Source: a virus | DNA length: 64,000 bases | Virus record (IMG/VR): IMGVR_UViG_3300021400_000020 | Location: 1 to 64,000 of that record | Strand: one strand, 5' to 3' | Shown here: piece by piece, positions 699-50,519 of the stretch | How positions within the stretch are numbered: the stretch's first letter is position 1 | Layout: the number at the start of each line of letters is the position of its first letter | The notes under the pieces: generated by a model | What the model saw: the letters and a program-made list of their open reading frames with translations, nothing else | The model's database searches: none | Told to the model about the DNA's origin: nothing | Made by a program: the position numbers and the translations under genes

Positions 699-1484
699 AT
701 GATTATCTCTATCCTTAATTACAAAGGTGGAGTGGCTAAAACCACCACCACCCTGAACCTCGGAACAGCACTATGGCTGCTCGACAAGTCGGTACTTCTC
801 ATCGACACGGACTCACAGTGTAACCTCACCAAAGCACTCGGATTCGACCCGAAGACTGACGGCAACGAAACCATCTACGAAATGCTAACAGGCAAATGCC
901 ACTCCTTTCCTATATATGAAAGAGGAAAAGGACTGGACTATATGCCAGGCTCACCCGCACTGGAAAGCATCGCCAAGGAACTGCCAGAGTATAAGAAACT
1001 AACCGTACTCCGACACTACCTCTCTCAAATCGCAACACAATACGACTACATCCTGATTGACTGCCCACCATCAGCATCACTACTCAACTACAACGCAATG
1101 ATAGCGTCCGAGTCTATCATCATCCCTCTCGAATGCGCCGCATTCTCAGTACAAGGCTCACTCAAGCTGATACCAGACATCGAAGGCATCAAGGCTGAAC
1201 TGAACCCGAAACTCACCATCCTCGGCTACCTCTTCACCAAATTCGACAAGAGAACCAACATCGCCCGACAAGTGAAGGAACTCTTCGAACAAAACAAGAA
1301 CGTACCTACTTTCAAGACAACCATCAGAAGATGCGTGGCTTTCGATTCCACACCTATCGAACACCAGTCTATCTTCGAATTCGATGCAGAGTCCAACGGA
1401 GCAAAAGACTACCTCGCACTCGCAGAAGAAATCACCAAAACAAAAAGGAAGAAAAACTGGAAACGAAAAATCAATCCATCCTAA
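699..1484 (+). CDS. parA: ParA/Soj-type partition ATPase
   Basis: 261 aa. N-terminal deviant Walker A (MIISILNYKGGVAKTTTTLNLG), LIDTDSQ and ILIDCPP motifs. Confidence 0.9.
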   Translation: MIISILNYKGGVAKTTTTLNLGTALWLLDKSVLLIDTDSQCNLTKALGFDPKTDGNETIYEMLTGKCHSFPIYERGKGLDYMPGSPALESIAKELPEYKKLTVLRHYLSQIATQYDYILIDCPPSASLLNYNAMIASESIIIPLECAAFSVQGSLKLIPDIEGIKAELNPKLTILGYLFTKFDKRTNIARQVKELFEQNKNVPTFKTTIRRCVAFDSTPIEHQSIFEFDAESNGAKDYLALAEEITKTKRKKNWKRKINPS

Positions 1485-1553: not shown

Positions 1554-1560
1554 CTTTCAG

Positions 1561-1590
1561 TTTCTCAGTATGCAGCGGTTTTGCCGCTGC
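1561..1590 (+). repeat. TTTCTCAGTA box + hairpin B (GCAGCGG-TTTTG-CCGCTGC)
   Basis: Box at 1561-1570 and hairpin at 1572-1590. The same box+hairpin recurs at 50357-50386 and 50417-50446. Confidence 0.85.
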
Positions 1591-1627
1591 CGTATTCTTC
1601 CATTCTGCTTTCGGTCCCCCACCCCAC

Positions 1628-2442: not shown

Positions 2443-3930
2443 ATGAAAAAGGACGACAAAAATAACCCGATAGAAAAGAAAGCGAATCTACTGGATGCAA
2501 GATGGATTAACACGCCCTTCGTCTATACGGAATTCTTCAAAGGATTATCACTCCTGCAACAGGACATCATGATAAAGGTGTCTGACAACATCCAGAACTT
2601 TATCAACTCGTATTTTTCCGACGGCAGAAACAACTCGAAAGACGTTCCAAGACCTCTTTTCACGGAGGACGATAAAGAACACCACCTTGAACCCATACGC
2701 ATCACACTCGCTGAATATGGCATCACAGCTGGGCATTACGACCAAATCGAGAAAGCCGTCAAGGAAATACTCGAAATCAAAGCCAAACGCATCACGCATG
2801 ACGAAAAGGGAGGACTCGTCATTCAGTGGATAAACATCTTCCTGCAAGGCGAAACACCCATCACCACAGAAGGATATACCTTCACAAGCAAGAACGGAGA
2901 ACTCAAAACCGTCACACGCTCTAAAGGATGGCTCGACTTCCGAATCAATCCAGAAGTCGCTGACTGGGTATTCGATATGTCGAAAGGCTATGTCAACCAT
3001 CCTAACATCATCGCACGTATCAGCACGGCATCACACACTCCACAACTCTACTCCCTCCTCAAACACAAATGCGAACAGTCAGGCAAGGGAAAACTCACCG
3101 TCAACGAAATCAAAGACTACTTAGGACTCTTCGTCAAGAACGAGAAGACAGGTGAAAAAACCTACCAACTGCCTAAATACTCGCAGTTCAAGAAGTACGT
3201 GCTCCAGAAAGTACAAAGCGACCTCGTGCGCATGAGCCAAGAGAAACAAATCGACATCACCTTCGACTTCCACGAAATCATGCCCAATGGACGAAAGACA
3301 GGCGACCCACTCTACATTGAATTCAAACTGCACAAGACAGCAATGGACAAGAAGAAATATAGGATGGCTGCCAACAAGAAAATCGTCGATACACTCATGA
3401 AACGATGTGGTGACCTAAAGGAAGCACTCATCGAACCTATCATCATCAAGGTCAAGGATGAAGACTTCAGCGACTTCTCATCCTACGTCTATCAGGAACT
3501 GCCAGGCATCATCGAACACCACTACCCAGAAGATGTGGCGGCATACACCATCGCGCTACTTCGCAACTGGGTGAAGAACCGACTCAAGAAGATGCAGGAG
3601 GCAACTCAACTGAACCTGTTCGAACAAGTAAACGAAAAACAAAACTACACACCAAAAAAGAACAAAGGGGAATTCGCAGAAGAATGGCAACAGATACTTC
3701 GTGAATACGACGGCATCCTCCACCCTGTCCTGCAAAAGGCAAAGCACCAAGGCAGCATCGACGGATTCATCTGGATAGAATTCAATACCTACGAGGAATA
3801 TCAGCAGTACATCCAAATGACCGAACATAACCCATCGGAAATGAACACCTTAATGAATACCGTCAGAAAGGTCATGGGAGGCATGGACCACGGCAGAGTC
3901 CTCAAAACTGGCTACAAGAAATCCAACTAA
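2443..3930 (+). CDS. Putative iteron-binding replication initiator (Rep)
   Basis: 495 aa, directly downstream of the iteron array and next to parA. No strict catalytic motif recognised, so the call is mostly from context. Confidence 0.55.
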   Translation: MKKDDKNNPIEKKANLLDARWINTPFVYTEFFKGLSLLQQDIMIKVSDNIQNFINSYFSDGRNNSKDVPRPLFTEDDKEHHLEPIRITLAEYGITAGHYDQIEKAVKEILEIKAKRITHDEKGGLVIQWINIFLQGETPITTEGYTFTSKNGELKTVTRSKGWLDFRINPEVADWVFDMSKGYVNHPNIIARISTASHTPQLYSLLKHKCEQSGKGKLTVNEIKDYLGLFVKNEKTGEKTYQLPKYSQFKKYVLQKVQSDLVRMSQEKQIDITFDFHEIMPNGRKTGDPLYIEFKLHKTAMDKKKYRMAANKKIVDTLMKRCGDLKEALIEPIIIKVKDEDFSDFSSYVYQELPGIIEHHYPEDVAAYTIALLRNWVKNRLKKMQEATQLNLFEQVNEKQNYTPKKNKGEFAEEWQQILREYDGILHPVLQKAKHQGSIDGFIWIEFNTYEEYQQYIQMTEHNPSEMNTLMNTVRKVMGGMDHGRVLKTGYKKSN

Positions 3931-4300: not shown

Positions 4301-6127
4301 TCAACCCATTACAGGTCGGCTCACACGCATCTTACCACCAAAGGAAGCTGCACTGAATCCCCTACCACCAAAACCATAGAACCGACAGCCGATAATCAGG
4401 GTATCAGCGGCATCGGAAATATCAGTGCGCTCTTCAAGCGGTCCTGCCGTCGGAGAACTGGACCTGTACTTCTCCCTACCCTTGTCCTTCTTCACGTAGG
4501 TATGCCCATTCTTGTCAACGGCTGTAGCCACCTTCGCGTTCTCCATCGCTACTATCAAGTATTCGTTATTCTCAACATTGATTCTGAAGAATAACTGCTG
4601 CTGACCGCTCATGACATCATTCAGAAACTGATACTTCTGGTCGTGACGCATAGGTGTCTTCATATCCACCATAATGACATGCCAACCTCGCGCCGTCAAC
4701 TCTTCATTCACGACATTATAAAACTTGTACTTTTCCTGCTCCTCCAAGGCATAAGTACCACCCTGCTTCGCCGTTGCATCATAATAATATATAACATCAT
4801 TGCAAGTTGCCTTGTGAGGCTCATAGTAACGACACCACTTCCTACAAAGCTCACGCAGCTTTTGCTCATTCTTTACATACATGGAACTCAACACCACAAC
4901 ACTCTCCACACCATCCATCTTGTACTGCTGACCTGTCACCACAGTATTGATGTTCTTGTTGTAGTCGAAAGCAATCCGCAATGGCAAGCCAGGCACTACG
5001 TCCGTATCAAGCACACAGTTGTAAGTGGCACGCTGCAAGGCATCAAGGTCTGGTGCCTTATACGAGTCGCCGTTCATCATCTTGTGCTTCGCCATGAACT
5101 TCTTCTGGATCACTTCGGTCTGGTCGTCCTCACGTGGCGCATACCCATGAACATGGACATCGAAACTCGAATAATATCCGTCCTTCGCCGCAGCCGTGCG
5201 CTTACCCAAAATCTGCCTGTCAAATACCAACTTCGGCAACTGACGCTCCATCCTCGCTATATAATCCTCACCAAGTATTTCAATATTTTCCAAGGAACTA
5301 AAATTGAAAAATGCCAGACTCTGACAACGCAACTCCTGCAATCGACTGCTCCACTCAGGAAACTCATGACTATTCGACAAGTCAATGCCATACTCCTCCA
5401 TGTAATGCTGCTGCTCTGCAAGCATCTCGACAATCTGCTGATTCACTTCTTCGGTCTGGTCATCCTCCGCACTCTCCCACTCCTGCTGAGCCAACGTCAA
5501 ACCACTATCACTACACCAAGTCTGACTCAAATAACGAGGGTTCTTCTTCGACCAACCAGGATGGTCATAGACATCGCCACGCAAGGCGGGAATTACCTCT
5601 TGCAAGACTTTCTGCCAATTAAAGAAACGAACCTCGTCCCCCATAATCCAACATAGGTTGTAACTGTTGGCAGACGCTCGCTGCTCCATCGAAACCATAA
5701 TCATCACAGCACCATTGTAGAAATGCAAAGCGTTCTCCCAGACACGAGGCTTCACCAAGGGCTCAACATAACCCGAACGCTTCGGAGCATGACCACGGAA
5801 ATACTGCACACCCTCCTTCCATCCTAACATCGTCTCTAACGACTTAACCATATTCGGCATCGTCTTACAGTACAGCTGCTTCAAACTATTACCTAAGAAC
5901 GCACCTAAACCTCTCGGTATCGTCTGCACATTCGCCGTCAGAAATGGGGCTTCTATACTTGTCTTGCCGAATCCTCGACCTGCACGGATATAGGTCTCCC
6001 TCGCACCAAAATTATATATCAACTGCTGAGCACGACTTAGGTACATCTCACGATACTTCGGTGTGAGCTTCTTTCCCTCAGCCAAATCCAAAGGCAATAC
6101 ACTGTCTAATAGCCCTGTGTGCATCAT
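4301..6127 (-). CDS. terL: Terminase large subunit
   Basis: 608 aa. Walker A-like RAGRGFGKTS, Walker B-like IMGDEVRF, and the size and layout typical of TerL. Confidence 0.7.
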   Translation of the reverse strand: MMHTGLLDSVLPLDLAEGKKLTPKYREMYLSRAQQLIYNFGARETYIRAGRGFGKTSIEAPFLTANVQTIPRGLGAFLGNSLKQLYCKTMPNMVKSLETMLGWKEGVQYFRGHAPKRSGYVEPLVKPRVWENALHFYNGAVMIMVSMEQRASANSYNLCWIMGDEVRFFNWQKVLQEVIPALRGDVYDHPGWSKKNPRYLSQTWCSDSGLTLAQQEWESAEDDQTEEVNQQIVEMLAEQQHYMEEYGIDLSNSHEFPEWSSRLQELRCQSLAFFNFSSLENIEILGEDYIARMERQLPKLVFDRQILGKRTAAAKDGYYSSFDVHVHGYAPREDDQTEVIQKKFMAKHKMMNGDSYKAPDLDALQRATYNCVLDTDVVPGLPLRIAFDYNKNINTVVTGQQYKMDGVESVVVLSSMYVKNEQKLRELCRKWCRYYEPHKATCNDVIYYYDATAKQGGTYALEEQEKYKFYNVVNEELTARGWHVIMVDMKTPMRHDQKYQFLNDVMSGQQQLFFRINVENNEYLIVAMENAKVATAVDKNGHTYVKKDKGREKYRSSSPTAGPLEERTDISDAADTLIIGCRFYGFGGRGFSAASFGGKMRVSRPVMG

Positions 6128-6240: not shown

Positions 6241-7104
6241 TTAAAAGTCCTCCTCTTCCAATTCCTCCACCTCTTTATATGCAGGAGTTTCGCCATTGCC
6301 ATCATCATCCACCTCGTCAGCTTCTCCGTATGCAGCGGTTCTGCCGTTGCCATCATCATCCACCTCGTCAGTTTCTCTGTATGCAGCGGTTCTGCCGCTG
6401 CCATCATCGTCCACCTCGTCAGCTTCTCCGTATGCAGCGGTTCTGCCGCTGCCATCATCGTCCACCTCGTCAGTTTTTCTGTATGCAGCGGTTCTGCCGC
6501 TGCCATCATCGTCCAGCGAACGACGCTCCAACTCTTCCATGCGTTGCTCCAGCATCTGCTGAATATGGTCCTTCGTACCACCATATCTGTTATACAAGGC
6601 TATCAACTCCTTACGGGTAATCGTCTTCTTGTCACTACTAATCGTCTCGACACGGGAGGTGAGGAATATAGGCAACTGAGCTGTATTGCTGGCTGCCTCT
6701 ACCGCACTGTCCTCCTTGTCCAAGTGGTCTATGTCCTTCAGCAACTCAGCTCCCTTGATTTTTGCCGTGTTGTCACCCACTGCATCACCATGACGAATGG
6801 AATCCATCGCCACCCTACGCACAATCACCTTCGACATCTCACGACTACTGTTCCTTTGACAAAGCGAAAGAATATGTAGGAAAATCTGCTTGTCTATCAC
6901 AATCTGCCAAGTTCGCCTTCCCTTCCGCTTCAACCACATGTCAACATCCATATAGGGATTGTCTTCGAATCTGTGATATAACTCTAAACATAACTTCACT
7001 CGCTCACGCTGCTTGTCACCTAAGCGCAGCTCCTCCAACGGAATTCCCAGCTCAATATGACGTGTCACCTGCTGCATGGTGTGCTGACTCGGTTCTGTAC
7101 CCAT
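6241..7104 (-). CDS. Hypothetical protein upstream of terL (small-terminase candidate by position) with acidic repeat tail
   Basis: 287 aa. The C-terminus is five 17-aa repeats (DDDGSGRTAAYxxxDEV). Confidence 0.6.
   Translation of the reverse strand: MGTEPSQHTMQQVTRHIELGIPLEELRLGDKQRERVKLCLELYHRFEDNPYMDVDMWLKRKGRRTWQIVIDKQIFLHILSLCQRNSSREMSKVIVRRVAMDSIRHGDAVGDNTAKIKGAELLKDIDHLDKEDSAVEAASNTAQLPIFLTSRVETISSDKKTITRKELIALYNRYGGTKDHIQQMLEQRMEELERRSLDDDGSGRTAAYRKTDEVDDDGSGRTAAYGEADEVDDDGSGRTAAYRETDEVDDDGNGRTAAYGEADEVDDDGNGETPAYKEVEELEEEDF
6259..6513 (-). repeat. 51-bp tandem repeat x5 inside the CDS; each unit contains hairpin B
   Basis: Each unit carries gcagcggttctgccg(c/t)tgc, the same stem as intergenic hairpin B, with loop TTCTG. 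Confidence 0.85.
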
Positions 7105-13953: not shown

Positions 13954-13960
13954 CCAAAAG

Positions 13961-14139
13961 CCACCGTTCCCGAAAGTTCTGCTTTCGGGTTCCCCTCGCC
14001 ACCGTTCCCGAAAGTTCCGCTTTCGGGTTCCCCTCGCCACCATTCCCGAAAGTTCCGCTTTCGGGTTCCCCTCGCCACCATTCCCGAAAGTTCCGCTTTC
14101 GGTCATTAGTTTCTCAGTAACCGAAAGTTTCGCTTTCGG
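13961..14139 (+). repeat. Tandem hairpin-A array (38-bp unit x4 plus a boxed terminal copy)
   Basis: Units start at 13961, 13999, 14037 and 14075 (ccaccgttcccgaaagttccgctttcgggttcccctcg). A TTTCTCAGTA box and a fifth hairpin follow at 14121-14139. Confidence 0.95.
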
Positions 14140-21472: not shown

Positions 21473-22924
21473 ATGAAAACTAACATGATTTACGCAACTT
21501 GGAATGTTGCACGTAACGAGAACAAAAACCAGAATCAGATTATCTTGGTTAATGATGGCACTAACTTCCATACCTTCGCAGAGGATGTGGATGCCGTTAT
21601 GTCGTGTGTATTTGGCACTGATTCCGAGAAGGTTGTTAATGAAAGCAAGTATCAAGATATGGCAACTTGTTCTTTCCCAAAGACACAGATTGACGTTATC
21701 ACTCTGCTGCTTCGCAACAACATGGCACCTATCATTCGCATGTTGCCAGAGGATGCAGAGGTTGCTTCTGAACCTACTGCCAAGGTAATAGCTATGCCTA
21801 CGAACAGCAAGCCAGAGGCAACCAAGGAAACCAAGCCAGAGGCAACCAAGGAAACCAAGCCAGAGGCAACCAAGGAAACCAAGCCAGAGCCTACCAAGAC
21901 AATCAAGTCAGAGCCTACCAAGACAACCAAGCCAGAGCCAGTTACATCTACTCCATCCATTGAGCCTATTGCAAACGAGCCAACACTTAGCAAAGCACAA
22001 CTCGCAACCCTTGAGAAGTATTGGATGAAAGGTTATGACCTTGCTAATGCATACGTGGCTTCATTGAGTTCGACTGAAATCAACGAGAAGTTGCTTGACC
22101 TGAAGAACAAACTTGATTCATCTTGGGCAAATGCTCAGAAAGTGAAGAAGAATCTTGCAAGTTTCTTTATCGCCATGATGGGGTATAGAACAGTGCAAGG
22201 TCAAATTGCTTGCATTGATAAATACCTGAAGGGTTGTGGTACTGAAGAACCTGCCGTGACCGATGAACCTACTACCACTGAAGAACCTACTACCACTGAA
22301 GAACCTACTACCACTGAAGAACCTACTACCACCGAAGAACCTACTGTGACCGAAACTCCTGCCGTGGCTGAAACTCCTGCCGTGGCTGAAACTCCTGCCG
22401 TGGCTGAAACTCCTGCCGTTGTTGTTAGTGTTGATGCAGACACTGACACGCCAACACCAACAATCTGGCTTGGGTACTCTCCTAAGAGCTTCGTATTCAC
22501 TGGTAGCATCAAGGATGATGCAGACATCCTTACAAACTTAGGCGGTCGTTGGAACAGCTTTGGGTTCAAGGAAATTGACGGCAAGCCACAAGGATGGACG
22601 TTTCAATCCGCTAAGCAAGACGTGCTTGTTGCTACTCTCAAACGTCTTTACCCTTCCGTTGTCTTGATGGACTGCCAGCGCAGTAGCGCAGTCGATGAAC
22701 CTCAGAAACCTCTCTGCCGACTTCAGATGATTGACTACTCTGATAGATGTGTTGCCTTGACAGGTGAGGGCATCGAGTTCTACGAGAAACAGATTATGAA
22801 TGAGCTTCACGGAGCACGTTGCAATCGTTTGGTGATTGGTACAGACAAACCTCGTCTTGGCTTCTTTATCAGCAAAAGACGTATGAGTGATGTAGAAAAG
22901 TTTGTGAACACTGTTAATGCGTAA
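21473..22924 (+). CDS. Hypothetical modular protein with PT/E-rich tandem linkers and two C-terminal repeat modules
   Basis: 483 aa. KPEATKET x3 plus variants (about 21809-21953). EEPTTT x4 and ETPAVA x4 (about 22244-22427). C-terminal modules at about 22463-22657 and 22721-22912. Confidence 0.75.
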   Translation: MKTNMIYATWNVARNENKNQNQIILVNDGTNFHTFAEDVDAVMSCVFGTDSEKVVNESKYQDMATCSFPKTQIDVITLLLRNNMAPIIRMLPEDAEVASEPTAKVIAMPTNSKPEATKETKPEATKETKPEATKETKPEPTKTIKSEPTKTTKPEPVTSTPSIEPIANEPTLSKAQLATLEKYWMKGYDLANAYVASLSSTEINEKLLDLKNKLDSSWANAQKVKKNLASFFIAMMGYRTVQGQIACIDKYLKGCGTEEPAVTDEPTTTEEPTTTEEPTTTEEPTTTEEPTVTETPAVAETPAVAETPAVAETPAVVVSVDADTDTPTPTIWLGYSPKSFVFTGSIKDDADILTNLGGRWNSFGFKEIDGKPQGWTFQSAKQDVLVATLKRLYPSVVLMDCQRSSAVDEPQKPLCRLQMIDYSDRCVALTGEGIEFYEKQIMNELHGARCNRLVIGTDKPRLGFFISKRRMSDVEKFVNTVNA

Positions 22925-45630: not shown

Positions 45631-46012
45631 GCGAAAGTTCCGCTTTCGCCTTTCATCCTCCCCCGAAAGTTCTGCTTTCGGTCCTTAGTTTCTCCGTATC
45701 TGAAAGCTCTGCTTTCAGCCATCAAAGAAACAAGGTTTCCACGCTCTCGTGAAAACCTTGAACTTTTGAGTCTCAATTCACGCAAAAAAATTGAAACTCC
45801 ATCTTTAAATCATGGCAAAGATACGACTTTCATCGTTCCCCTCAAAATCTTTCCGTCAATTTCTGCACCACCGTCCACGAAAGTTCCTGCCACCGTTCCC
45901 GAAAGTTCCTGCCACCGTTCCCGAAAGTTCCGCTTTCGGGTAAAAAGAAAGTTCCGCTTTCGGTTTAGCTTTCAGCCCTTGCTTTCTCCGTACCCGAAAG
46001 TTCCGCTTTCGG
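45631..46012 (+). repeat. Dense pile-up of hairpin-A elements and fragments
   Basis: Copies at 45631-45649 (GCGAAAG variant), 45660-45681, 45700-45718 (CTGAAAG variant), 45912-45940, 45946-45963 (degenerate) and 45993-46012. Half-units of 22 bp at 45868-45889 and 45890-45911. Confidence 0.9.
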
Positions 46013-48428: not shown

Positions 48429-48463
48429 TTTTTCACTTTTCACTCTTCACTTTTCACTTTTTA
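48429..48463 (-). repeat. Heptad leader repeat (GTGARAA)x4
   Basis: Minus strand reads gtgaaaa gtgaaga gtgaaaa gtgaaaa, about 12 nt upstream of ATG 48417. Confidence 0.85.
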
Positions 48464-50227
48464 TTTGCTCTCCGTTGATACAACCCCCGTCTTGCTGTTG
48501 TCCAGCGTCGTGAGGTTCTGCTGTTCTATCACCCATTTCAAGTGCTTGTCACAGTCATTGAAGGTGGAAATCATGTCCAAGAGCCATAGGTAACGACGCT
48601 GACTTGGACTCACCTGCTGCTCCTTCAGCAAATGCAACTCACGCTGGAACGTGCCTCCCTTACCAGAACTACCAGGACGTGAGCCGATCAGTTCGGGATG
48701 AACACCCATTGCAAAGAAGATGATACTGCTCACTTCCTCCAACTCGGCTTTTAAGTCCTTGGCGTTCTGAGGTTGTGGCACATCTACAATCTCAATCGAC
48801 TTCACGAGCGTCTTCTCATCTTGGCTCAGATAGGCATCCAATGCAACGGTCTTACCGTTATTGTCGCGCTTCTTCAGGAATTGGTTGATGTCGTTAATCA
48901 GACCCGTCTTGATAGCATCCTGCTCGTCCTCGTTCGTCGCTCCCATCTGGTCGTAGAGTTTCTGAAGGTAGTTGAGATTGATGTAGATGATTTTTCCCCA
49001 CATCGTAGAGTTGTTCCTCGCCGCTGCCTTGTCGAACATCATTGTATAGGCATAGTTATACACATAGCTCAGGAAGATACTCCACCACATAGGCTGTGGA
49101 TAGTAAGGGCGGAGTATGTTCGCACGTTTCAGAGGGATGCAGAACCATGCCGTGCGCTCATTCACCTTCTGACGTTGTTGACGCGATACCCACGAATTCA
49201 ATTCTTCAATGGCACTGTCGGAATTGATGACAGGGTAGGCGATGACCTCGCCAAATTGCAAGTCGGGAGTGCATTCCTTGCGCCAACGCTCGGCATAGAA
49301 GACATTCTCAATCTTCAAGTCCTTGCTCATCTCCTCGTAACGGGTGCAGACACAAGGCAGAAAACCGAGTTTCACAATCTTAGGATTCCACTTGCCGCTC
49401 TTACCTCGCGACAAGCCAATCGTAGGAAAGGCGATGTTCATGTGGGCATCGTCAGTACAATACTTCTCATAATGCTCACAGAGATTGTTGTTCTCAAGGA
49501 ACTCACGAAGCCATTGACTTGTGCTTTCCCATTTTTCATAGTCTTTGACAAGCTGATCGATTTCCTTGTCAAGGTACTCTTTGAGACGAGTATGCTTGCC
49601 ACCCTTACGCGGACCTTCCTCGCCACCGTTCCCGAAAATTTGGTTTTCGGGTAAAAGGTTACCGTTCCCGAAGGTTCTGCCTTCGGATTCCCCGTTCACC
49701 CCATCATCCTGCGACTCATCATCATCCAAGGCATCTCGTCGTGAAGATAACTCTATAAGTCTATTCAGAATCAGCGTACCAGCAAGAGGGTAGGGGATGC
49801 TCTCTTCCTTGACCGTCCCTCCAGCGTATCGTGCCCATACGTAAGTGGGTTTGGGACCATGCCCTTGCGTGAGGTTGATGATGTATTCCATAGCAGCAGC
49901 AGTGTAGGGGAGGGCTGCCACTAACTGCGCAATCCTGTTCGGCTGGTCGTTGGCACTGCCCCAGGCGATATACTTGCCTTTGACGGTCTTGCTATCCACA
50001 CTGATTGCCTGTATTTGCTTACCGTCGGGAATGAGGTTGCTGCCCGTACCAAGCATCGACTTGTTCGCCCATTCCGCGCAGCCACTCACCACCGAAGGGT
50101 CGTTATTCTTGCTGTTGCCAAACCCTGTCACCGTGATGGGAATATAACCACGTTTCTGCAAGCTCTGAATCTTGCTGAAGGCTTTATCAACGGTTTTTTT
50201 AAACTGATTCTTCTGATTCTTTGCCAT
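48461..50227 (-). CDS. Portal-like protein (tentative) with embedded repeat module
   Basis: 588 aa, first gene of the minus-strand virion block, with a -7 box 25 nt upstream. The portal call rests on size and position only. Residues ...GRTFGNGNLLPENQIFGNGG... are encoded by two hairpin-A copies. Confidence 0.45.
   Translation of the reverse strand: MAKNQKNQFKKTVDKAFSKIQSLQKRGYIPITVTGFGNSKNNDPSVVSGCAEWANKSMLGTGSNLIPDGKQIQAISVDSKTVKGKYIAWGSANDQPNRIAQLVAALPYTAAAMEYIINLTQGHGPKPTYVWARYAGGTVKEESIPYPLAGTLILNRLIELSSRRDALDDDESQDDGVNGESEGRTFGNGNLLPENQIFGNGGEEGPRKGGKHTRLKEYLDKEIDQLVKDYEKWESTSQWLREFLENNNLCEHYEKYCTDDAHMNIAFPTIGLSRGKSGKWNPKIVKLGFLPCVCTRYEEMSKDLKIENVFYAERWRKECTPDLQFGEVIAYPVINSDSAIEELNSWVSRQQRQKVNERTAWFCIPLKRANILRPYYPQPMWWSIFLSYVYNYAYTMMFDKAAARNNSTMWGKIIYINLNYLQKLYDQMGATNEDEQDAIKTGLINDINQFLKKRDNNGKTVALDAYLSQDEKTLVKSIEIVDVPQPQNAKDLKAELEEVSSIIFFAMGVHPELIGSRPGSSGKGGTFQRELHLLKEQQVSPSQRRYLWLLDMISTFNDCDKHLKWVIEQQNLTTLDNSKTGVVSTESK
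49623..49686 (+). repeat. Two hairpin-A variants inside the portal-like CDS
   Basis: 49623-49651 (CCCGAAAA-tttgg-TTTTCGGG) and 49660-49686 (CCGAAGG-ttctg-CCTTCGG). Followed by caccccatcatcc. Confidence 0.9.
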
Positions 50228-50309: not shown

Positions 50310-50446
50310 CCACCGTCCCTGCCACCGTCCCCGAAAGTTCCGCTTTCGGTTTCCAGTTTCTCCGTATGCAGCGGTTTTGCCGCTGCCCCTTCCCCTGTTC
50401 CGCTTTCGGCTTTCAGTTTCTCCGTATGCAGCGGTTTTACCGCTGT
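50310..50446 (+). repeat. Hairpin A (one and a half copies) + two box/hairpin-B units
   Basis: Half-copy at 50310-50321, hairpin A at 50322-50349, hairpin B at 50368-50386, half-site at 50391-50409, and hairpin B' at 50428-50446. Confidence 0.9.
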
Positions 50447-50519
50447 CCCTTCCTCCTGTTTCTATTTCTGCTTTCCCCTCCCCATCTTTTTTGTCCTTTC
50501 CTCTGTCATAGATTCCTCC

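Follow-up and report, generated by a model that had tools for sequence, protein, structure and literature searches.

A tandem repeat in the acidic tail of a protein encoded upstream of terL in an uncultured phage probably derives from a REP-like palindromic element

Results

A protein encoded directly upstream of terL ends in a long acidic repeat tail

The DNA analyzed here is a 64,000-nt stretch of a virus genome, referred to below as the window; the phage carries plasmid-like genes. On the minus strand, directly upstream of the gene for the large terminase subunit (terL), lies an ORF for a 287-aa protein whose C-terminal tail is encoded by a tandem repeat (Table 1). A 113-nt AT-rich spacer separates the two genes. 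The terL product is 29.6% identical to an annotated TerL, and it matches by tblastn the annotated TerL genes of Microcystis, Polaribacter, Flavobacterium, and Porphyromonas phages.

The AF2 model of the 287-aa protein is helical over amino acids 1–199 (pLDDT about 90) and disordered over amino acids 200–287 (pLDDT about 50). Nothing meaningful was found for this protein in Pfam, PHROGs, a PDB profile search, Foldseek-PDB, or per-member Pfam and PHROG scans; the PDB matches were designed helical repeats and were rejected as a composition effect. Its BFVD matches were uncharacterized phage proteins only, with TerS matches at E >= 0.6. By hhalign, the ORF immediately preceding TerL in Microcystis phage Mea-Yong924-1 matched the protein with 83% probability, and homologues of the protein in L067, L068, and L069 are also encoded directly upstream of TerL. 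By position only, it is a candidate packaging accessory protein or small terminase. Its homologue family comprises 57 representatives, and members throughout it typically end in an acidic, disordered tail: the tail is net acidic in 48 of 49 homologues, with a median length of 20 aa, and that of the window, at 90 aa, is the longest. A protein search with the tail alone returned no other proteins, and megablast of the locus against GenBank phages returned no matches.

Table 1. Coordinates of the array-bearing locus and of related elements in the window
Feature	Position	Strand	Basis or remark
terL, large terminase subunit, 608 aa	4301..6127	-	phrog_2, E 6e-7
Array-bearing ORF, 287 aa; helical N-terminal domain and acidic repeat tail	6241..7104	-	ORF list
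C-terminal tip EELEEEDF	6244..6267	-	stop codon at 6241-6243
Degenerate unit 5 (DDDGNGETPAYKEV)	6268..6309	-	hairpin lost
Repeat unit 4 (DDDGNGRTAAYGEADEV)	6310..6360	-	hairpin 6332-6350, one G·T pair on + strand
Repeat unit 3 (DDDGSGRTAAYRETDEV)	6361..6411	-	hairpin 6383-6401
Repeat unit 2 (DDDGSGRTAAYGEADEV)	6412..6462	-	hairpin 6434-6452
Repeat unit 1 (DDDGSGRTAAYRKTDEV)	6463..6513	-	hairpin 6485-6503
Four 34-nt REP-like modules (CAGYTTYTCYGTAT-GCAGCGG-TTCTG-CCGYTGC-C)	6318..6504	+	antisense to gene
Conserved all-helical domain, aa 1-197	6514..7104	-	homologue family and AF2 model
Intergenic module copy	1558..1591	+	between ParA-like gene and next + strand gene
Two intergenic module copies	50354..50447	+	inside 60-nt tandem array, divergent intergenic region
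Second coding case: two hairpin-A type elements (…GESEGRTFGNG…PENQIFGNGG…)	49631..49686	+	in frame inside ORF 48461..50227(-)

Four of the five repeat units carry a hairpin

Tandem Repeats Finder detected a 51-nt period at 6297–6515 (4.3 copies, 94% matches, score 382). A preliminary description of this DNA had placed a 51-bp coding tandem repeat at 6259–6513; the repeat is real, and that span corresponds to the Tandem Repeats Finder span plus a degenerate fifth unit. The same description correctly put the array in frame with the listed ORF, within the C-terminal tail of the gene upstream of terL. It counted five peptide units, of which DDDGSGRTAAY(R/G)(K/E)(T/A)DEV is found four times and the fifth is the degenerate DDDGNGETPAYKEV. 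This fifth unit could represent either the first copy to arise or what is left of the ancestral tail (compare GDGFADYAEV in the relative L001). A hairpin had been assigned to every unit. Four units carry it, as GCAGCGG-TTCTG-CCGCTGC with a 7-bp stem and a 5-nt loop: three have the exact 19-mer, and in the copy at 6332–6350 a C>T change produces a G·T pair. Unit 5 has no hairpin. The claim that all six reading frames are open did not hold, because only five are open over 6259–6513 and the third minus-strand frame contains 12 stops.

Folded as DNA, the + strand of the array forms four hairpins (z = -5.2). The sequence after each stem reads AUAC(G/A)GAGAA in the mRNA sense and CATCATCGTCC on the + strand; no array stem has behind it, on the transcribed strand, the U-tract that follows the G+C-rich stem of an intrinsic terminator. 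Rfam at the gathering threshold gave no matches in the whole window. RNA contigs covered terL and the 5' part of the array gene at a low level; their coverage of the array was zero and is uninformative on transcript ends. The count of five units is that of the original assembly, and Logan contigs of a source-like run break inside the array.

The coding repeat shares a 34-nt module with intergenic sites

As originally noted, the array stem is identical to that of intergenic hairpin B (1572, 50368, and 50428), and its TTCTG loop is a common hairpin-A loop. All coding copies have TTCTG, and the intergenic hairpin-B copies have TTTTG or TTTTA. The 19-mer pattern matched seven times in the window versus 0.00 expected. 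A 34-nt module (CAGTTTCTCCGTATGCAGCGGTTTTGCCGCTGCC, up to 3 mismatches) also matched seven times versus 0 expected, at four coding and three intergenic sites, all on the + strand. Because these 34 nt are common to coding and intergenic copies, the homology is larger than the stem originally described. Besides the three B-type intergenic copies, the window holds 28 hairpin-A copies, nearly all intergenic. All 35 copies of the hairpin family lie on one strand, the C-rich one, whatever the gene direction. Several intergenic copies have weak terminator-like scores on the + strand, and some have pyrimidine-rich tails. The site in L001 orthologous to 1558..1591 keeps the same flank and has a swapped stem, GCGAAAG/CTTTCGC. 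The hairpin-A elements of the second coding case are kept in related runs.

The element belongs to a family in rumen Prevotella and its phages

In the family form, TTCTCC-GTAT precedes a hairpin with a 7-bp G+C-rich stem and a TTYTG loop, and a C follows the hairpin. The conserved tag is (TTCTC)CGTAT, with CGTAA in L001 and CGTTC in hairpin A; it resembles both GTAG and CGTC and is identical to neither. A pattern scan that left both partners of stem position 3 free matched mainly rumen Prevotella/Bacteroidales loci. At every such locus position 3 was complementary (A:T, G:C, T:A, or C:G), with the sole exception of L014, which has no 5' flank. Matches outside Bacteroidales also had no flank and were complementary at about the chance rate. 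Further covarying stems were GCCACGG/CCGTGGC, GCCGCAG/CTGCGGC, and GTGTCGG/CCGACAC.

By Pfam, nine of ten flanking ORFs were ordinary cellular genes (including sdhA/frdA, GS-III, uvrB, mutL, pnp, and gmd) and the tenth encodes a phage tail protein; one additional family locus adjoins fucI, as read from its ORF. For about half of the family copies, a stop codon is no more than 30 nt away, whichever way the copy is oriented. The family is located mostly between genes, just downstream of housekeeping ones, in rumen Prevotella/Bacteroidales chromosomes, and it is also present in their phages. The prophage L005 has one copy in a VRR-NUC tail, read in a different frame, and a second in the linker of a VapE primase, where it is an insertion relative to five homologues.

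Other identities for the element were considered and rejected. A 5'-UTR module (hairpin, GGAGAA, ATG) was discarded because a start codon is near only a minority of loci and stop-codon proximity is common. CRISPR-like, DGR hairpin, and nut-site readings were dropped, since the units are identical without spacers, there is no TR/VR pair, and the orientation to transcription is inconsistent.

Unit number varies among alleles and the reading frame is kept

Thirteen alleles of the array gene, coding for 222–287 aa, have N-terminal domains that are 97–99.7% identical at the nucleotide level. Their TerL genes are equal in length (607–608 aa across close alleles). The number of 51-nt units is variable, from 1 to 5 across the 13 alleles, and some of the low numbers may represent repeat collapse in short-read assemblies. 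Two alleles carry an extra, truncated unit of 33 nt. All 13 are in frame and all end in (E/D)L(E/D)EEDF. Close alleles have 1–4 hairpins. L001, at 83% nucleotide identity, has none; its acidic tail is non-repetitive and ends in LEDEDF. No empty-site/filled-site pair was seen among the alleles and relatives compared.

In the distant homologues of L068 and L069, the tail also contains a family hairpin, read in the orientation and frame seen in the window. A compensatory change that alters amino acids (G>S and A>T) separates the two stems (GCTGCGA/TCGCAGC versus GTTGCGA/TCGCAAC). In L067, which is related to these two and whose TerL is 39% identical to that of the window, the tail keeps …NAAYETSE with a half-decayed hairpin. 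L070–L073 have no tail hairpin. Scans for further relatives returned none in metagenome_contigs or P0053 and only the already-known contig in viral_contigs; the sequences in the family alignment diverge too much to allow a pattern scan for relatives.

Across 21 units, 2 of 19 hairpin columns were variable versus 11 of 32 other columns. The lower variation in hairpin columns is a tendency short of significance (p = 0.096, Fisher), and the comparison at third codon positions is not significant either (p = 0.24); the hairpin columns contain no synonymous change. Nine of the 13 variable sites are non-synonymous. In the preliminary description, synonymous changes that destroy the hairpins while the protein tail is conserved were to mean selection at the protein level only. 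None was present among the 21 units, and protein-level-only selection is therefore likewise not demonstrated.

Discussion

The array is probably a tandem repeat that is translated, varies in copy number, and was built from a REP-like palindromic element. This reading is supported by the sequence shared with intergenic and host copies, by the covariation of the stems, and by the in-frame translation across alleles. The copy-number variation, the disorder of the tail in the AF2 model, and the absence of the hairpin in a close relative support it as well. According to the preliminary description, a structural element of non-coding type doubles as the acidic C-terminal tail of a packaging-region protein, and the shared 34-nt module, the intergenic host copies, and the in-frame alleles with their EDF tip bear this out.

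From the distribution of the element, we infer the direction of capture: one copy would have come to sit within the 3' end of what is now the array gene, antisense to it. In that reading frame, the captured copy would encode the hydrophilic peptide G-S-G-R-T-A-A-Y-G-E, and the 34-nt module, extended by 17 nt from the acidic tail (…DEVDDD…), would have given the 51-nt unit. Slipped-strand mispairing or unequal recombination, perhaps favored by the hairpins, may then have raised and lowered the number of units. The insertion was presumably tolerated because the site is an intrinsically disordered acidic tail, a trait of the whole family. Selection may preserve only the reading frame, the acidity, and the (E/D)L(E/D)EEDF tip, and for that reason the repeats would mainly be a variable-length acidic spacer. 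The terminal tip probably binds a partner, and each unit would contribute an aromatic-acidic AY.E motif.

The closest known counterparts of the element are the GTAG- and CGTC-tagged REPs (Di Nocera et al. 2013), which lie mostly just downstream of genes, are sometimes clustered, and occasionally occur inside ORFs, often near termini or in linkers, where they add 20–30 amino acids (PMC3733652). CGTC-type REPs have 8–9 bp stems and 4–5 nt loops, have been reported in Bacteroidetes, and have no dedicated transposase (PMC3733652). The element described here is likewise a short, G+C-rich, multi-copy palindromic stem-loop, as expected of REPs (20–40 nt), is located mostly downstream of genes, and has many, mostly extragenic copies, as counted in the window; its stems covary across loci. 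Its conserved unpaired tag at one end is (C)CGTAT or CGTTC, similar but not identical to GTAG and CGTC, and its stems differ in being 7–8 bp. It also resides in a phage genome, is common to the host, has all its window copies on one strand, and is amplified inside a gene head-to-tail and in frame, in 1–5 copies.

Rickettsia palindromic elements (RPEs) are similar in forming a palindromic family that occurs between genes and inside ORFs, where the ORF stays open and gains an extra peptide segment. As with intragenic REPs and RPEs, the present element occurs in intergenic DNA as well as within ORFs that remain open, and the insert is absent from the L001 tail and, for the L005 linker, from the five VapE homologues. 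RPE-1 is 100–150 bp long and Rickettsia-specific, whereas the module here measures 34 nt, is an element of Prevotella and its phages, and has been amplified in tandem. The array also resembles coding VNTRs, among them palindromic ones such as PARCEL (PMC2996958), in its palindromic DNA, its variable number of units whose length is a multiple of three, and its location in a disordered or surface-exposed region. The 51-nt and 33-nt units, present in 1–5 units in 13 alleles with the ORF intact, agree with this class, with the caveat that short-read assemblies may under-count. Unlike those repeats, the unit here is traceable to a non-coding element that is still intergenic in the same genome and in the host.

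A cis role for RNA or DNA is possible because L068 and L069 also have, in the matching position and frame, a hairpin whose stem covaries; this recurrence could mean a cis function at the tail position, beyond mere tolerance. In the fullest form of this idea, which is conceivable though doubtful, the hairpin family would be an undescribed REP-like element common to rumen Prevotella chromosomes and phages, and its confinement to one strand in the phage would point to a single-strand, replication-coupled copying mechanism. Phage proteins would have exonized it repeatedly within their disordered segments, in every case antisense and for the most part in the G-R-T frame. Compensatory evolution would keep it in the terL-adjacent tail through a cis role: it might be a terminase recognition element, or it might signal RNA 3' ends or processing and so fix the amount of upstream protein relative to TerL. 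The stretch would then have a dual use, as peptide and as structure.

It is unlikely, in our judgment, that the hairpins act chiefly in cis on the RNA at the junction with terL and that coding use is secondary. A REP-type stem-loop there would block 3'-to-5' mRNA decay, or partly terminate or process the transcript, and so set the ratio of the upstream protein to TerL; REPs have been proposed as RNA elements downstream of coding regions (PMC3733652). The compensatory, amino acid-changing stem difference at the shared position, orientation, and frame in L068 and L069 is consistent with such a role, as are the host-locus copies within 30 nt downstream of stop codons, the weak terminator-like intergenic sites on the + strand of the window, and the tendency of hairpin columns toward higher conservation than the rest of the unit (p = 0.096). 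However, near-identical alleles have anywhere from 1 to 4 hairpins, and L001 and L070–L073 have none. No U-tract follows the stems in the mRNA sense, and the AT-rich spacer parts the array from terL in the window. Gene conversion from intergenic copies could also mimic compensatory evolution, because copies within one genome share stems.

Alternatively, the repeated peptide itself could be the selected feature, with AAY-E-DEV in each unit providing multivalent binding to TerL, portal, or DNA-mimic targets and the hairpin a historical by-product. Aromatic-plus-acidic motifs do recur in family tails (…DLFDEYD, …FMDEEED, …ADYAEV…), …NAAYETSE is retained beside the half-decayed hairpin of L067, and A-Y-x-E-V persists in unit 5 and in the L001 tail, both of which are hairpin-free. 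We nevertheless consider this improbable: most variable sites are non-synonymous (9/13), no synonymous change breaks a hairpin, the peptide is conserved in two lineages only, the DNA of the element is read in a different frame in L005, and the tail-only protein search found no matches.

A pac-like terminase recognition or cleavage site inside the terL-adjacent gene, the alternative raised in the preliminary description, found no support and is very unlikely. The pac sites of P22, SPP1, and Sf6 lie within the small-terminase gene, and the array resembles them in position only, as a repeated DNA motif inside a gene that adjoins terL and could, by synteny, encode a small terminase. The motif is structured, with the four + strand hairpins (z = -5.2), and hairpins recur in the tails of distant homologues. 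A pac site would be expected to be unique in the genome and conserved among relatives, yet the module also occurs at 1558, 50354, and 50414, 28 related hairpin-A copies lie elsewhere in the window, and the element is common in host chromosomes. Hairpin number ranges from 0 to 4, with one relative having none, despite TerL lengths of 607–608 aa and N-terminal domains 97–99.7% identical in the close alleles, and no TerS similarity was detected in Pfam, PHROGs, PDB sequence, Foldseek-PDB, or BFVD searches. Finally, that the array is an assembly artefact, or is untranslated, is extremely improbable despite the contig breaks in the source-like run, since assemblies made independently from many samples agree on the architecture and differ in their unit variants, two internal junctions between units are matched exactly in X1 (Logan contigs), and the frame and terminal tip are kept in every allele.

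Taken as a captured and amplified REP-like element, the array is an interesting instance of an already familiar type of event, in which a host-type hairpin element was captured in a protein tail and amplified in frame. It offers a traceable case of a phage protein gaining and resizing a disordered tail from a non-coding, host-type palindromic repeat in a permissive frame. The repeat family links an uncultured phage (contig of about 97 kb) to rumen Prevotella, and shared repeats of this sort could serve as a host-prediction signal. The hypervariable terL-adjacent locus could likewise serve for strain typing. If the hairpins do also act in cis, the locus would hold an overlapping code, for peptide and for nucleic-acid structure, at the packaging module.

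The array lies in the gene directly upstream of terL

Read on the minus strand, the 51-nt repeat keeps the frame of ORF 6241..7104 (287 aa) and forms its C-terminal end, where four copies of DDDGSGRTAAY(R/G)(K/E)(T/A)DEV are followed by a degenerate unit, DDDGNGETPAYKEV, and the tip EELEEEDF. The preliminary description placed a hairpin in each of five units and held all six frames to be open; the fifth, degenerate unit has no hairpin, and five of six frames are open, the third minus-strand frame having 12 stops.

The next gene, a large terminase, begins 113 nt further on as ORF 4301..6127(-). It matches phrog_2 (E 6e-7) and, over 91% of its length, is 29.6% identical to the TerL annotated in Microcystis phage Mea-Yong924-1, with additional matches in Bacteroidota phages. 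The family defined by residues 1–198 of the 287-aa protein has at least 57 cluster representatives (116–284 aa, mostly ~190–270 aa) and no relative in Pfam, PHROG or PDB. AlphaFold2, with a 50-sequence alignment, predicted nine helices with pLDDT ~90 to residue 199 and ~50 in the repeats, and Foldseek found no similar solved structure, matching uncharacterised phage proteins only. In every lineage inspected (the window clade, the phage relative L001, and the distant homologue loci L067 and L068–L073) the gene immediately 5' of terL encodes a family member, and the Microcystis phage probably has one there too (hhalign 83%). By this position the protein belongs to the packaging module and is at most a candidate small terminase. 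Homologue tails are net negative in 48 of 49 cases (median 20 aa), many ending in a hydrophobic-plus-acidic motif, and the window's tail, at 90 aa, is the longest.

Coding and intergenic hairpins share a 34-nt module

The window has seven copies of the hairpin 19-mer GCAGCGGTTNTRCCGCTGC (0.00 expected), all on the + strand: three are intergenic (1572, 50368, 50428) and the other four belong to the array. One array hairpin carries a C>T change, which leaves a G·T pair. The array had been proposed to share its stem with intergenic hairpin B; it does, but the homology was understated and covers a 34-nt module, CAGTTTCTCCGTAT-GCAGCGG-TTTTG-CCGCTGC-C, which matches four coding and three intergenic copies with at most three mismatches (none expected). 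Because it matches all four hairpin-bearing coding units, the coding unit comprises the module plus 17 nt encoding DEVDDD.

Hairpin B and the scattered hairpin A appear to be one class, since the L001 site orthologous to window 1572 combines a B-type flank, CTTCTCCGTAA, with an A-like stem, GCGAAAG/CTTTCGC. A second copy of this composition lies downstream of L001 terL. At the orthologous site (L001:15269–15287, window 1572–1590) the flank (C)TTCTC(C/A)GTA(A/T) is kept except for two single-base differences, and the stem is wholly swapped, GCGAAAG/CTTTCGC vs GCAGCGG/CCGCTGC. Stems are uniform within one genome and different between genomes, and this sharing suggests concerted evolution of the hairpin family.

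All 35 hairpin copies in window 1497–60787 (28 hairpin-A and 7 hairpin-B sites) are on the + strand, even inside minus-strand gene blocks (7182, 7219, 45631–46012, 49668 and the coding array). GC skew stays negative over nearly the entire window, regardless of gene direction. Together these observations suggest an origin or function tied to one strand and possibly coupled to replication.

Short 9-mer arrays sit just upstream of several gene starts, often directly after hairpin arrays, and are found upstream of gene starts in L001 as well. Direct repeats near the ParA-like gene (699..1484) may be iterons or a parS site; these repeats and the DnaB, ArdC, PcfJ and SNF2-methylase genes lend the phage a plasmid-like character. 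Pfam had no match for the 483-aa protein of ORF 21473..22924(+), which contains further coding repeats.

Repeats and hairpins of the window and of related loci
Feature	Position	Period and copies	Content
Coding array, ORF 6241..7104(-)	6297-6515	51 nt, 4.3 copies, 94% matches	Tandem Repeats Finder score 382
Intergenic tandem array	50337-50475	60 nt, 2.3 copies	B module + half of A element
Intergenic tandem array	13960-14102	38 nt, 3.8 copies, 98% identical	Hairpin A
Coding hairpins, ORF 48461..50227(-)	49631-49686	two	A-type, …GESEGRTFGNG…PENQIFGNGG…
Coding tandem repeats, ORF 21473..22924(+)	21808-21937, 22241-22419	24 nt, 18 nt	Units up to 100% identical
9-mer arrays	1630, 14152, 18270, 36930, 37194, 57668, 59490		CCCATCAAC (or CCCCATCAA)
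Direct repeats	2214-2326; L001:14636-14718	22 nt	GTAAACAAGATGGTAGAATATC
Tail hairpin, distant homologue	L068:656-674		TTTCGTAT-GCTGCGA-CAGTG-TCGCAGC, read …CDTVAAYETTD…
Tail hairpin, distant homologue	L069:2096-2114		TTCTCCGTAT-GTTGCGA-TTTCA-TCGCAAC, read …CDEIATYGEEE…
Intragenic modules, Prevotellaceae prophage	L005:1359-1391, 3438-3470	two	
Tandem array, Prevotella MAG JAGAYI010000061	L016:2176-2395	49 nt, five copies	B-type modules

The element family in Prevotella and Bacteroidales

A pattern scan of public collections, with both partners of stem position 3 left free, yielded five viral contigs and 34 genome loci. Loci with a TTCTCC-type 5' flank are nearly all from rumen Prevotella, Prevotellaceae or Bacteroidales MAGs, and position 3 is complementary (A:T, G:C, T:A or C:G) at all of these loci but L014, itself without the flank; matches in other phyla have no flank, and their position 3 pairs about as often as chance predicts. 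Looser searches added the covarying stems GTGTCGG/CCGACAC, GCCACGG/CCGTGGC and GCCGCAG/CTGCGGC. Nine of ten flanking ORFs examined with Pfam are ordinary cellular genes, including succinate dehydrogenase/fumarate reductase, glutamine synthetase III, UvrB, MutL, PNPase and GDP-mannose dehydratase, and one encodes a phage tail protein; by ORF reading, a further locus adjoins fucose isomerase. Roughly half of the copies follow a stop codon by no more than 30 nt, whichever way they are oriented. The L016 array, whose period is not a multiple of three, is probably non-coding.

Rfam had no match for the module. Repetitive extragenic palindromic elements (REPs) are short tagged palindromes, mostly 3' of ORFs and at times in clusters or within genes (Di Nocera et al., PMC3733652), and CGTC-class REPs, with 8–9 bp stems and 4–5 nt loops, are reported in Bacteroidetes (PMC3733652). 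The module matches this profile in its palindrome, position, clustering and intragenic copies, but its tag (CGTAT, CGTAA or CGTTC) is similar rather than identical to the consensus tags of that study.

Hairpins in other genes and in distant homologue tails

The A-type hairpins of ORF 48461..50227(-) (588 aa) are read in frame as …GESEGRTFGNGNLLPENQIFGNGGEEG…, one has a compensated stem, CCGAAGG/CCTTCGG, and they are kept in related runs. L005 (identical in sequence to L018 and L034; Prevotellaceae RUG003 scaffold_2) is an unrelated prophage of 57% G+C. One of its copies shares 30 identical nt with the window unit and encodes part of the C-terminal tail of a VRR-NUC protein, in another frame (AAAEPLHTEK); a VapE-type primase linker contains the second, which is read GGGRTAAYGE, has a compensatory A:T to G:C stem change and aligns to a gap in five homologues. 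The coding copies are all antisense to their gene, with the G-R-T frame in four of five, and in the opposite orientation they would yield peptides rich in Cys, Leu and Pro. We take this bias as a filter by what a disordered hydrophilic segment tolerates.

In a distant subfamily (the TerL of the related L067 is 39% identical to the window's), the L068 and L069 tails each contain a hairpin of the family, with the orientation and reading frame seen in the window, 20–30 nt ahead of the TerL start codon. Their stems are one compensatory pair apart, with the amino acids changed; L067 has a half-decayed hairpin (…NAAYETSE), and the L070–L073 tails have none. This recurrence may reflect usefulness in cis at this site, or the gene's 3' end may be a favoured, permissive landing place for an element normally found just after stop codons. 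Homogenisation of coding copies with the genome's own intergenic copies is a further possible cause, because stems are shared within each genome. Action of the array hairpins in cis on RNA at the junction with terL is a rival reading that we judge unlikely.

The array is translated and varies in copy number

The 90% cluster of the 287-aa protein contains 13 distinct sequences of 222–287 aa. DNA was compared for eleven alleles (the window and ten relatives), whose N-terminal domains share 97–99.7% nucleotide identity. Their tails have one, two, three, four or five units; the degenerate last unit is present in some and missing in others, and two alleles have a 33-nt truncated unit minus one hairpin arm. 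All alleles keep the frame and terminate in (E/D)L(E/D)EEDF, which upholds the earlier proposal that the array serves as a protein tail. In L001, whose domain is 83% identical in nucleotides, the acidic tail is non-repetitive, 35 aa long, ends in LEDEDF and contains no hairpin. As judged from these comparisons, the array is a translated, rapidly changing copy-number-variable tandem repeat (VNTR) for which no particular hairpin number, and in L001 none at all, is required. Selection on the repeated aromatic-acidic peptide itself is another rival reading, and seems improbable.

Among 21 full units, two of 19 hairpin columns vary vs 11 of 32 others (p = 0.096), and synonymous third-position changes number 0/6 vs 4/11 (p = 0.24); this is a trend and not proof of selection on structure, and the units are also non-independent. 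A pac site next to terminase, as suggested previously, is very unlikely because the motif is not unique in the genome, is not conserved in number and is absent in L001. Two internal unit junctions are matched exactly by Logan contigs of the probable source run, which do not span the array, and an artefact is scarcely credible.

Probable capture of a palindromic element as an acidic spacer

We consider it probable that a REP-like element was captured in a disordered acidic tail, amplified and maintained as protein. The element and 17 nt of tail sequence would have been amplified together, and the translated array would persist as an acidic spacer of variable length that precedes the conserved tip, its copy number shifting by slippage or unequal recombination. 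In-frame palindromic elements are already known in bacteria, as the Rickettsia palindromic element, and so are intragenic REPs (PMC3733652 for the latter). What is new here is the phage setting, with a hairpin family common to phage and Prevotella host, an in-frame tandem amplification to a VNTR of one to five copies in the protein next to terL, and the restriction of the hairpins to one strand.
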